From NCBI RefSeq assembly GCF_006345805.1, contig NC_043008.1:558001-622000 (forward strand): a stretch of DNA of 64,000 nucleotides, written 5' to 3'. Below, piece by piece: positions 17,993 through 64,000 of the stretch (position 1 is the first letter of the stretch; each line of letters begins with the position of its first letter). The notes under the pieces were generated by a model. That model made no database searches. It had not been told where the DNA came from and saw only the letters and a program-made list of their open reading frames with translations. The position numbers and the translations under genes were made by a program. The stretch is from Octopus sinensis. Its lineage: Eukaryota.

Positions 17993-18036
<44 letters not shown>

Positions 18037-18373
18037 TATACATATATATACATATATATAATAATAGTTATCGCCATACTAATATGGCATTCTTATAAAA
18101 ATAAGAATAAAGCTGTCCGCTTATTAGCTCCATGAGGCCATCGCCTTAAGTTAGCTAATAAGCGGACAGCTTTATTCTTATTTTTATAAGAATGCCATAT
18201 TAGTATGGCGATAACTATTATTTTCCGAAAACGCTGCCGTTGTTCTCTTTTAGAGAGACTTAGTAATTTTAATATTTCTATTATTGAAAACAAGTGGATG
18301 TATTCCACCGAAGCTAGGTAAATAAAACCTTCGAACAGAGATTGTCAGAAGCGACACCTACTGGTCTGGCTAC

Positions 18374-18416
18374 GCTGCATTGAAAAGGGGCAATACCCCG
18401 AAAACGCGTCTGTAGC
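18374..18416 (+). ncRNA. Type I hammerhead ribozyme, U3-A8 core variant (copy 1)
   Basis: GCTGCA TTGAAAA GGGG CAATA CCCC GAAAA CGCG TC TGTAGC. Has one extra A versus copy 2, possibly a homopolymer error. Predicted cleavage after 18410. Confidence 0.75.
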
Positions 18417-18737
18417 TGCCGGTCAAGTAGTGTGGAGCGACTGACCTCCCTTGTTCGAAGGTTATATGGATACAGTTTGTGTATCAAATAGCTAACTTAG
18501 GCGATGGCCTCATGGAGCTAATAAGCGGACAGCTTTATTCTTATTTTTATAAGAATGCCATATTAATATGCGATAACTATTATTTTCCGGAAAAACGCTG
18601 CCGTTGTTCTCTTTTAGAGAGACTTAGTAATTTTAATATTTCTATTATTGAAAACAAGTGGATGTATTCCACCGAAGCTAGGTAAATAAAACCTTCGAAC
18701 AGAGATTGTCAGAAGCGACACCTACTGGTCTGGCTAC

Positions 18738-18779
18738 GCTGCATTGAAAAGGGGCAATACCCCGAAACGCGTCTGTAGC
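18738..18779 (+). ncRNA. Type I hammerhead ribozyme, U3-A8 core variant (copy 2)
   Basis: GCTGCA TTGAAAA GGGG CAATA CCCC GAAA CGCG TC TGTAGC: 6-bp stem I, 4-bp stem II, palindromic stem III ACGCGT, GUC site. Predicted cleavage after 18773. Confidence 0.82.
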
Positions 18780-19044
18780 TGCCGGTCAAGTAGTGTGGAG
18801 CGACTGACCTCCCTTGTTCGAAGGTTATATGGATACAGTTTGTGTATCAAATAGCTAACTTAAGGCGATGGCCTCATGGAGCTAATAAGCGGACAGCTTT
18901 ATTCTTATTTTTATAAGAATGCCATATTAATATGGCGATAACTATTATTTTCCGGAAACGCTGCCGTTGTTCTCTTTTAGAGAGACTAAGTAATTTTAAT
19001 ATTTCTATTACATATATATACATATGATATATATATACATATAC

Positions 19045-19090
<46 letters not shown>

Positions 19091-19139
19091 AACATATATA
19101 TATGTATGTGTGTGTGTATGTATGGAGATGTGTATGTGT

Positions 19140-41339: not shown

Positions 41340-42470
41340 TTTTCGAATATAAAGTAAATTTTCTTTTGTATTGAAGAACTTGTAAAATCACGGAAACAGT
41401 CTGGCAATATACATTAATTCCAAACATTATTCAGAGTCGAAAATGTTACTTCATCCGTGACTCAGCTATGTTATCCGCGGCCTCCGTTATGTTGAAGTTC
41501 TTCCAAAAGTTTCAAAGCGTAGGTTAATCATCCTCGCCAACTGCGTGGTTAACATTTTTTGAAAGTTCTACTTCCAAGTTTTGCATAACTTGATCCATTG
41601 CCTTAAGCAGAGAAATTGTATTTTGTTGGATATGTCTTACTCGCATTGTTAGAAATCTCTTCAAGTGGCAGAGTGCATTGTCTAAAAAGAGCACAGCCTT
41701 GTTGGAATTATGTTTGGCGCGGTGCCTTCCTGTAGTAGGACACACAATGTTTGTAAGCCCTCTTTGAACGTCCAATCAGAGATAAATTATACAGTGCATG
41801 AATCTCTCAAATGCTCTGGGATTTTCAGTGAACTGCACGAGAAGGGGCTTTAATTTCATTTCGCCAGCGGTATTTCTTCATAGAAGAATCGTCAGAGGAA
41901 TTTTGAATATTTCATTTGATGGTGTTGATTTTTCTTCTCGACAAATAAAAGTTCTTGTTTCCAGAAAAGCGCAGTTTCACGTTATGTTCTTGCTCTAATA
42001 TGCAGCCCCGACTCTTTAACCCCTTTCTGTTTCATTCCCTTGGGATAATTAGTAATAGCCTCTGTATCAGCGCTAGTAGCATCACCAGTCATTTTCAGGC
42101 TGAGAAAATACAAGCGTTCCTTACATCTTTCAAACTAGGCTTACCGGCCATATCACTTTGAAAACACCGGCTCTCGTCCGATCACCGAAGTTAAACAAAG
42201 TCGAGCCTAGTTAGTACTTAGATGGCTGACCGCTTGGGAAACCTAGGTGCTATAAACGTCTTTCTCAAGGCGGTGCCCCAGCATGGCTACACTCTAATGA
42301 CTGAAACAAGTAAAAAAGAAACAAAAAGAAAGTCAAGAAGGTGTCTTCATTAGAAGTTTAATTTTTCTTTGAGTGCAAATCGTCATGCAAACTTTTGATT
42401 GTTATTTTAATTACCATCGTGCTTAACAACACATTACGTCACATCTGACATAAATCTCTGTAATGACGAA
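41340..42470 (-). mobile_element. pogo/Tigger transposase relic, split by a 5S SINE
   Basis: Motifs KAVLFLDNALCH, NTISLLKAMDQ, NTAGEMKLKPLLV..ENPRA, ASADTEA, FERCK and LSTMVIK..KSLHDDL, with stops and frameshifts. Confidence 0.8.
42139..42330 (+). mobile_element. 5S rRNA-derived SINE (SINE3-type) or 5S-SINE chimera
   Basis: Full-length 5S-like sequence 42139-42258 (GGCCATATCACTTTGAAAACACCGG..CGATCACCGAAGTTAA..TTAGTACTTAGATGGCTGACCGCTTGGGAA) fused to the family B tail. Confidence 0.85.
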
Positions 42471-55844: not shown

Positions 55845-56528
55845 ATTAATAATAATAAACATTGTGTACAGTGCTCAGGTGCACTACAACTCATCTAAAG
55901 TGCATATATAATCAGGTGTAGTTTCGACGGATTTCGGAAAGCATGAGGGCCTTAAAGGGGCAGTGTCATGGCAGTCAACAACTGACGCAGGCAGTTTATT
56001 CCATGCTTCAGCAACTCTGAGCGTGAAGAAATGTTTCCGAAAGTCATGGGAGCTGTGTTGTTTTCTGACTTTGTAGGCATGTCCACGTGTGTTAGACACA
56101 TGGAGATCAAAAAGGTGTTCAGTGTTGTTATTGGTGAGGTGGTTGACAACTTTGTGGGCGTTTACCAAGTCCGTCGCCAGACGCCGGAGCTTCAGTGAAT
56201 CCATGCCCAGGGAAACAAGGCGCTCAGAATATGGTAGGTGTCTGATGGAGGGTATGCGTTTGGTTGCACGTCTCTGAACAGATTCCAGGAGGTCAGTGTT
56301 CTCAGCAAGATAGGGGTTCCAAACTGATGATGCGAATTCCAAGTGTGGTCGTACCATAGCTGTATACAGTTTTAAATAGATGGCTGGAGAGCGGCTAACA
56401 AAAGTCTTGCTGAGTGATGCCAAGACACCCTCGGCCTTCTTGACAATTTTAGAGATATGCTTTGTCCAACGCAAATCACTGCTGACAGTGATGCCTAGGT
56501 CACGCTCGCAAAAGGATTTCTTGATATG
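55845..56528 (-). mobile_element. CR1-clade LINE 3' fragment (RT C-terminal region)
   Basis: ORF 55884..56561: ERDLGI..HISKIVKKA..LYTAMVRPHLEFASSVWNPY..LESVQRRATK..YSERL..TRGH..FFTLRV..WNKLP; short (ATT)n tail; 5' truncated. Confidence 0.92.
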
Positions 56529-56898
56529 AGGCAGTAAAAGAGAATGACTCTCCCCAGACACAATAAAATGAACTGTATAGTTATTTGATCAATCGTACTG
56601 GTTTTGTAAGGAATATGGTGGAAGTGATAGTCATCCTATTGGTCAGTTGGCGTTCAGCTCTTAAGTCTTACACCAATTGAGCAGATCTCTGAGGGAAGGC
56701 AATGCAAGCATGATCTGCCCTCAATGTTGTATTTCATTAGCTGTTGCAGTTTCCTCCTGTTTTTAGGTTTGGTTGGATAGGGCAGTATCACAATGACGAC
56801 GACGATCTTATTTTCGACATGTTTCGAAGTCTGCAAAATCTCTATGGCTCCTAGTGAGCAGTCATCGAAAAACTTGTTGTGCATTTTGTTGGAGAATT

Positions 56899-62863: not shown

Positions 62864-62864
<1 letters not shown>
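61303..62864 (-). mobile_element. Composite non-autonomous Helitron
   Basis: Removing it restores a perfect (TTA)n. 5' TC at 62864, hairpin plus CTAG at 61303, and an internal second 5' terminus at 61696. Confidence 0.75.
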
Positions 62865-62925
<61 letters not shown>

Positions 62926-62930
<5 letters not shown>

Positions 62931-63097
62931 TATGTTTGACTTTTGCATTACATTTATACAAGTTGGCTCCAAGTCTCACCCAGAGACCTCAAGAGACAAC
63001 AAGTTGGAAGTTCATGTTGTTGCTATGCCTAGGGTGCCATATATTTGGTTTTGTACATAGTGTTGTACTAGTGAATGCCTAAAAAACCATACGAAAA

Positions 63098-63182
<85 letters not shown>

Positions 63183-63360
63183 TATTATTATTCTATGTTT
63201 GACTTTTGCATTACATTTATACAAGTTGGCTCCAAGTCTCACCCAGAGACCTCAAGAGACAACAAGTTGGAAGTTCATGTTGTTGCTATGCCTAGGGTGC
63301 CATATATTTGGTTTTGTACATAGTGTTGTACTAGTGAATGCCTAAAAAACCATACGAAAA

Positions 63361-63440
<80 letters not shown>
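62926..63440 (-). repeat. Two further tandem 3'UTR units separated by (ATT)n
   Basis: About 175-bp units at 62926 and 63190 appear identical. Confidence 0.85.
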
Positions 63441-63441
<1 letters not shown>

Positions 63442-64000
63442 TACTATTATTATTATTAATATTATTGTTATTATTGTTGTTGTTGTTGTGTTCCAGACTT
63501 CCCGTCTACTTATTTCTCTCAAAAGCTACTGGTCGATTCGACTCTATATAAGAAAGTACTTGCTCGAAGTACCGCGCATTGGGACTGAACTGGAAACTAA
63601 GTCGTTGCTAAAACAATTTCTTAACTACACGGCTATACCTAATATCTAATTGATGTTGATTGTTATCGTTTGAATATCTCCGGAACCGCTATCGCTATGT
63701 ATATATTTACATTACGCATTAAAAGACCACCTCAGAAACACCCTTGAGAACCACTCCCAGCGTCGTTTCGACTCTAAATTGGTTCCCTTCTTCAGTAAAG
63801 AAATGGCTGCCTTTTACTCGCTCGTAATTTGAACTAAAAATTACAACCGCAGACAAGAATAACAGAATGGAATAACCGCTCGGAATCCTGAATTGGATAC
63901 CGTGGTGAAGAGTAATTGATCTAACGACGAATTCTCCTGATGCCATATATATATACATATATCATGTATATATATATATATACATGCATACGAACACACG

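Follow-up and report, generated by a model that had tools for sequence, protein, structure and literature searches.

A family-wide U3-A8 hammerhead core in a putative non-LTR retrozyme of Octopus sinensis, and a homologous family with C3-G8

Natural covariation of the hammerhead 3-8 pair to U3-A8 was first reported in 2011, when the pair was already known to be active in vitro (PMC3088659), and in 2014 about 1,300 U3-A8 motifs were described in the ends of Schistosoma Penelope-like elements (PLEs) (PMC4209133). Non-LTR retrozymes, their circles and the hypothesis that PLEs mobilise them have been presented in two further studies (PMC7229834; bioRxiv 10.64898/2026.07.22.740005), and eight of nine predicted Xenopus retrozymes were without in vitro cleavage (bioRxiv 10.64898/2026.07.22.740005). 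These and the other sources cited here are used as far as their accessible parts go. In that literature, which lies largely outside subscription journals, we found no published report of an octopus or cephalopod retrozyme, or of U3-A8, that describes the family considered here.

We analysed a stretch of 64,000 nucleotides from Octopus sinensis (contig NC_043008.1, positions 558,001 to 622,000, forward strand; hereafter the window), in which an initial annotation had placed a hammerhead with a compensatory U3-A8 pair. Its description of 3-8 as a tertiary pair of the active hammerhead, and of U3-A8 as a rare natural variant, agrees with the accessible parts of PMC3088659 and PMC4209133. Direct reading also confirmed that the core TTGAAAA, stem II, GAAA, ACGCGT, GUC and stem I are all correctly placed, as follows:

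18738..18779, + strand: type I hammerhead motif with a U3-A8 core (from sequence, fold and pair counts)
18773, + strand: predicted cleavage after C17, from the motif layout
18744..18750, + strand: core TTGAAAA (UUGAAAA), with U3 at 18744, N7 at 18748 and A8 at 18749
18738-18743 and 18774-18779, + strand: 5' and 3' strands of stem I, by direct reading
18751-18754 and 18760-18763, + strand: stem II, GGGG and CCCC, with loop CAATA, by direct reading
18764-18767, + strand: GAAA, by direct reading
18767..18772, + strand: palindrome ACGCGT, a predicted 6-bp helix III between two copies (from duplex energy, the double-hammerhead minimum free energy (MFE) fold and palindromic variants)
18688..18826, + strand: long extension of stem I with a UAC bulge at 18735-18737, closing the ribozyme-bearing rod (from the fold, the circular fold and partial covariation)

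The order and spacing of these motifs around three helices, with helix I open, are those of a type I hammerhead, and the literal CUGANGA consensus is not matched by UUGAAAA at 18744-18750. The 42-mer at 18738-18779 folds just modestly better than its shuffles (z -1.86; 9 of 200 equally good), and the stretch 18700-18830 does so more strongly (z -3.80; 0 of 200). Rfam hammerhead models gave no match at gathering score across the 64-kb window and none at E up to 10 within 18000-19050; Rfam matches of miRNA type at 18054-18244 proved to be the inverted arm of the retrozyme. The bulge C and the first and last bases of loop 2 are invariant in 20 of 20 aligned rows, and the bulge U is nearly so; these bases may take part in a loop 1/loop 2 tertiary contact. 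The hammerhead at 18738-18779 is real and is very probably functional; it belongs to a known class of element and carries a known core variant.

The tandem context of the motif, a second core and an inverted arm had been overlooked in the initial annotation. A tandem repeat of 2.4 units with a period of 363 bp spans 18153-19010, and the insertion as a whole is made up of:

17994..18060, no strand: left (TA)n target
18060..18157, - strand: inverted arm, 5'-truncated, unit positions 206-303, terminating at the second fixed 3' end
18135..18283, + strand: partial unit, 5'-truncated, unit positions 217-364
18283..18646, + strand: first full unit, used for unit comparison
18374..18416, + strand: second hammerhead core, with C17 at 18410 and an extra A in GAAA
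18647..19010, + strand: last full unit, which holds the 18738-18779 motif
19012..19107, no strand: right (TA)n target

The full units at 18283..18646 and 18647..19010 differ by one substitution and four run-length indels of 1-2 bases. The extra A in the 18374-18416 core may be a true lesion or a run-length assembly error, the latter because indels of this kind make up four of the five differences that separate the units. No stop-to-stop frame of at least 150 aa overlaps 18060-19010, and the retrozyme element has no RT or GIY-YIG reading frame. The predicted circle of the unit folds at -116.2 kcal/mol, against -80.1 +/- 4.8 for 60 shuffles. A search for a tRNA head or tRNA gene found none across the 64-kb window, and a sigma-70 promoter scan, not meaningful for animal DNA, was at chance level. 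Elsewhere the window holds a 5S rRNA gene or copy (42139-42258, 90.3 bits), a 263-bp tandem duplication (62864-63457; 2.2 copies, 99%, (ATT)n-bounded) and a 234-aa frame on the - strand (55884-56588), a similar piece of which occurs in L104/L105 and which, we presume, resembles the C-terminal portion of an RT protein from a non-LTR retrotransposon.

The motif recurs in dispersed copies across the 2.72-Gb genome. An exact-context pattern had 1,041 matches against 0 in the reversed control; the motif is therefore not a product of chance. A broader pattern anchored on stem II returned 1,735 U3-A8 cores together with C3-A8 (20), U3-G8 (6), U3-C8 (2) and no C3-G8, meaning that positions 3-8 are U-A in 1,735 of 1,763 family cores and singly changed in 28. 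G3 and A3 were looked for in the narrow pattern alone, where there were 0 and one, respectively. Seven C3 cores among the matches listed comprised four deletion or truncation junctions and three genuine substitutions. Independent variation of positions 3 and 8 had been named beforehand as evidence against the initial reading; the 28 single changes are sporadic decay or junctions, and within the U3-A8 family both positions are fixed with rare decay and no covariation among copies. Given these counts, the swap is ancestral to the family and not peculiar to the copy in the window.

Most family copies are 98-99% identical, and the subfamilies marked by an N7 other than A (498 cores) are 76-89% identical to the window unit. 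Arrays reach about 10 units, and dispersed copies carry the marks of retro-insertion. The family and its subfamilies are also present in assembled contigs from runs labelled with five organisms, the kind of run being our guess; among the matches listed, these contigs hold no variant at positions 3 or 8, and they are uninformative on ends, strand and level. One low-depth contig (run X12, record 10) covers window positions 18643-18882 with 30 differences; over that interval the run, its kind likewise guessed, has 19 T>C places, a pattern that A-to-I editing would produce if it acted on the opposite strand in an inverted array. The family pattern had 0 matches in metagenome contigs and 0 in viral contigs.

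As the initial annotation anticipated, searches fixed on CUGANGA miss this family, with its 1,735 cores and no Rfam match. Such searches and Rfam overlook about 1,700 cores here, to be set against 675 canonical cores with a comparable helix III pattern, and retrozyme censuses that fix CUGANGA undercount because that many are missed in this genome. The canonical cores belong to an old family with an ACATGT helix III (675 matches against 30 in the control). Minimal-core hammerhead families, some of them U3-A8, also occur in the genome; a loose minimal-core pattern (1,389 matches against 672 in the control) was half noise and served as a source of leads only.

Because most copies are so similar, their near-uniformity is by itself uninformative, and selection was assessed on a tree of 157 distinct units, taken from 172 long units of the fetched loci with same-array duplicates dropped beforehand. 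No change at any of the 12 strict core sites fell on an inner branch; random sets of 12 drawn from 190 other sites gave an expectation of 9.2 (P 0.0007), and among 176 slid core placements the score was 0 at the true placement only. Three inner-branch changes fell on N7, which takes all four bases across subfamilies 76-100% alike, and three on C11.1, each leaving a G-C or G-U pair. On terminal branches there were 9 changes at the 12 core sites and 234 at the 190 others, as expected from post-insertion decay. Among 18 hand-picked diverse rows, compared with a shuffle control that disregards their relatedness, stem I was 99% paired, stem II 100% and the distal rod, more weakly, 75%; both stem I and the centre of the palindrome had pairs changed on the two sides. 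As read from these sequences, the invariant positions are precisely those of the catalytic core, with C17 and the 3-8 pair among them and N7 free, which suggests that the core is maintained by selection on cleavage and the motif kept working.

The swap can also be viewed against relatives. A profile of 11 genuine family copies, searched against 107 other loci, matched almost the whole unit in three loci of a sister family with the canonical core (nhmmer, best E 6.7e-17, unit positions 9-289). The sister set was taken as 23 loci, 20 of them fetched additionally from the C3-G8 pattern list. A profile without the ribozyme recovered 15 of the 23 at E<1e-3, one via a U3-A8 copy in the same locus, against none of the 23 loci when reversed and none of 69 loci with other hammerheads; the signal lies in the part downstream of the ribozyme, while the part 5' of it by itself found 0 of 23 sister loci at E<0.05. 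Sister units are 51-56% identical to the window unit. Their cores read CTGATGA in 21 of 22 cases, the remaining one being a junction, in loci chosen by a pattern requiring C3-G8, by which single changes there could not show. In most cores of this family (L039, L040, L047, L253-L272) the basal position of stem II (10.1-11.1) is a C-A mismatch; in 4 of 21 it is a U-A pair. The sister family is the older of the two, judging from its copies being 79-92% alike.

In a joint alignment of 20 rows the 3-8 column is CG in 10 and UA in 10, a split that reflects one branch, and 11 of 17 pairs are changed on both sides, where slid controls are 28-51% paired. The farther lineages L273 and L275/L246 have C3-G8, and the broken copy L274 has U3-A8; a C3-G8 pattern with the stem I closure of the family stayed at control level (39 versus 53) and gave one lead, L246/L275. 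The U3-A8 family and its sister each form a well-supported clade, and the order at the base of the tree is not settled. A single origin of U3-A8 was not rejected (p-AU 0.26, L246 left out), with L274 alone as the second lineage. On these sequences the swap would be one event, perhaps two, and C3-G8 is inferred to be ancestral from the midpoint root and from its being the general consensus. What is new here is a homologous family with C3-G8, so that the swap is visible between relatives. The initial annotation had read the double change as a sign of selection on catalysis. Selection on the core is supported, and on stronger grounds than one copy can offer, by the core frozen across subfamilies and by the C3-G8 homologue. 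The view needs qualifying in that the swap itself appears to be one ancestral event (at most two), and copies show no covariation among themselves.

Helix III is palindromic in 185 of 203 cores and comes in four kinds (ACGCGT 166, ACTAGT 11, ACATGT 5, ACGT 3), i.e., three centres and one shortened form. The MFE fold of the natural two-core stretch at 18340-18830 is a double hammerhead: the core at 18744 faces the site of the upstream copy, and the site at 18773 relies in turn on the core of that copy. This fold agrees with the dimer model of type I hammerheads in metazoans (PMC4209133). By prediction, a helix III of one pair in the monomer carries a penalty of 5.6 kcal/mol, and the duplex formed by the palindrome is worth -7.5 kcal/mol. 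The kept palindrome and the covarying stems point to cleavage as a dimer, and in this model the motif probably works as one, for which reason a monomer kinetic assay could mislead.

Insertions were surveyed at 106 loci (23 duplicates dropped), picked as best matches or by intact core. With four locus-edge cases set aside, there were 107 complete insertions, namely 69 inverted, 37 in a single orientation and one double. One arm ends at unit 299-307 and the other at 358-364 in 53 of the 69 inverted insertions; altogether 158 of 177 3' ends lie at these two sites and 122 of these are followed by (TA)n, compared with 2 of 37 outer 5' ends. The cleavage site is unit position 127, and 9 of 179 5' breakpoints fall at unit 121-140, which is about an average bin. 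Both fixed ends lie away from the cleavage site, and 5' breakpoints are not concentrated at it, so the template would be circular or an uncut multimer rather than a cleaved monomer. Within an array, divergence between units is 1.1% on the same strand and 1.25% between opposite arms, against 2.5% between arrays, though for only 41 of 108 units does the strictly closest unit belong to the same array. C3-A8 occurs in both arms of L106/L107 and a non-palindromic helix III in three of four units of L085; because broken cores or palindromes thus occur in several units of some insertions, an intact ribozyme may be dispensable for a single insertion.

A separate breakpoint position, unit 66, accounts for 7 of the 179. 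Four loci (L276:3648-9010 and L277-L279) contain, inside a retrozyme unit, a 5.4-kb two-frame non-LTR retrotransposon (a zinc-knuckle frame, then an endonuclease-RT frame), which we take to be of the L1/Tx1 type. In all four loci fetched (98% alike) it lies at the same site, unit 66-81 (window equivalent 18712-18727), accompanied by a 16-bp duplication.

We consider it likely that the locus holds a 363-bp non-coding tandem unit, a non-LTR retrozyme, whose family-wide U3-A8 stands against C3-G8 in a homologous family. The unit is likely to cleave even now, by prediction as a dimer, and a Penelope-like retrotransposon enzyme probably copies its RNA into (TA)n. In the double hammerheads formed by a multimeric transcript, the core at 18744 would act on the copy upstream, cutting it after 18410, and the core of that copy would cut after 18773, releasing a 363-nt monomer. 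A host ligase would circularise the monomer, by analogy with other retrozymes (PMC7229834), and in the circle a lone helix III of 1-2 bp would leave the ribozyme weak. A Penelope-like RT/GIY-YIG protein would then nick (TA)n and prime at two internal RNA sites 62 nt apart, and reading round the template would yield tandem units and back-to-back arms. The swap would have arisen from C3-G8 once, perhaps twice, and would since have been held by selection on cleavage.

It is unlikely that the hammerhead fold is instead kept for its structure or for recognition by a protein, e.g., a Penelope RT, with little or no cleavage and with arrays arising from uncleaved multimers. Broken-core insertions do exist, PLE minimal hammerheads are weakly active in vitro (PMC4209133), most Xenopus retrozymes are without in vitro activity (bioRxiv 10.64898/2026.07.22.740005), and the cleavage site shows no excess of 5' breakpoints (9/179 at unit 121-140); however, a re-ligated circle accounts equally for the absence of breakpoints at the cut, and what is conserved coincides exactly with the catalytic core, down to C17 and the 3-8 pair of the active fold, and leaves N7 free. 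A more elaborate account, which we regard as speculative and rather doubtful, treats the older C3-G8 family and its young, expanding U3-A8 relative as a natural experiment. The valley of inactive single mutants would have been crossed since tandem copies lend a working core in the dimer and broken-core copies still insert, and U3-A8 would then have gained favour as a weakened switch, working in the dimer only, by which RNA circles stay whole and can be read round by the Penelope enzyme.

For the retrozyme reading, the candidate mover would be sought among PLEs. Tandem or inverted insertion into (TA)n with a one-sided tail is a Penelope-like footprint, and Penelope-like insertions show matching anatomy (PMC8557442). 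The genome contains a young Penelope-like family with 717-aa open frames, in which RT motifs were seen by eye and a GIY-YIG domain is weakly matched (E 0.024, under the Pfam cut-off). We take this family to be 'Neptune-like'. Like the retrozyme it ends at two sites in (TA)n, here about 65-70 nt apart. A comparison over 30 of its loci gave no homology to the unit, the best E being 0.13 once the locus with a retrozyme copy is set aside, and the family counts as no more than a candidate mover. It has a hammerhead-like motif of its own (L110:6135-6195 and most of L115-L144), which occurs 32 times in identical form. The core of this motif is CCGAAGA (C4, C3-G8), its stem II is long and branched, and one additional base precedes GAAA. 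At L110:5133-6281 a truncated Penelope-like copy in (TA)n directly follows a retrozyme, whose last 24 bases are repeated beyond that copy, like a target duplication. The Penelope-like copy beside L101 was considered as a parent element and rejected, as it lies beyond (TA)n, has a different core and shows no homology.

That the unit is a detached pseudo-LTR of an autonomous U3-A8 Penelope-like element, its ribozyme selected in the parent, is an improbable origin. It would suit the insertion anatomy, which is identical to that of PLEs, the U3-A8 motifs in pseudo-LTRs of Schistosoma Cercyon elements (PMC4209133) and the derivation of Xenopus retrozymes from PLE ends (bioRxiv 10.64898/2026.07.22.740005). 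Yet among 106 loci none is joined to a PLE frame except L101/L110, where the PLE lies beyond (TA)n with a duplicated 24-base unit end, like a later insertion; the PLE encountered differs in its core and lacks homology, being one PLE family compared out of 26,362 candidate places; and whole ORF-less units diverge as subfamilies while the core is frozen. Finally, two chance transitions in a dead founder followed by satellite amplification, a very remote prospect, would fit both changes being transitions and most copies being 98-99% alike (a uniformity that is uninformative), but it is contradicted already by the frozen-core tree test and the joint 20-row pair alignment, with the core kept in subfamilies down to 76% identity, two-sided stem changes and dispersed retro-insertions with fixed ends.

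On the retrozyme reading, a rare hammerhead core variant appears, from family-level statistics, to have been kept by selection in a mobile animal RNA element. The U3-A8 family and its C3-G8 relative offer a matched natural pair for kinetics, and the fixed insertion ends strengthen the published hypothesis that Penelope-like enzymes move retrozymes.

Among known systems, as their accessible descriptions present them, the metazoan non-LTR retrozymes of Cervera and de la Pena (2020, PMC7229834) and of Li, Clavereau and Pollet (bioRxiv 10.64898/2026.07.22.740005) are likewise ORF-less tandem units of 150-450 bp with one type I hammerhead each. The octopus element shares with them a 6-bp helix I, a 4-bp helix II, a short palindromic helix III and low G+C, as well as a self-paired predicted circle and co-occurrence with PLEs (PMC7229834). 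It is unlike them in its U3-A8 core, none such being described in the accessible parts of either source, and in the way its copies sit in (TA)n, with inverted arms and 3' ends fixed at two places, features that the descriptions of those retrozymes do not include (PMC7229834; bioRxiv 10.64898/2026.07.22.740005). With endonuclease-bearing Penelope-like elements (PMC8557442) it has in common partial tandems, an inverted 5'-truncated copy, a tail at one end and (TA)n targets, but it differs from them in having no reading frame and a tail of 62 nt, compared with 30-40 bp there. Natural 3-8 covariation is shared with the examples of Perreault et al. (2011, PMC3088659), which are isolated ones and, in the accessible text, come without a family-level selection test. 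The closest likeness in the core is with the Cercyon PLE hammerheads of Schistosoma mansoni, which have the same swap, about 1,300 matches, a first descriptor that missed them and a predicted dimer (PMC4209133). Cercyon motifs are minimal, heterogeneous, mostly single and tied to PLE ends, whereas the octopus family combines a full-size motif with conserved loop 1/loop 2 bases, young tandem ORF-less units and a C3-G8 relative (PMC4209133).
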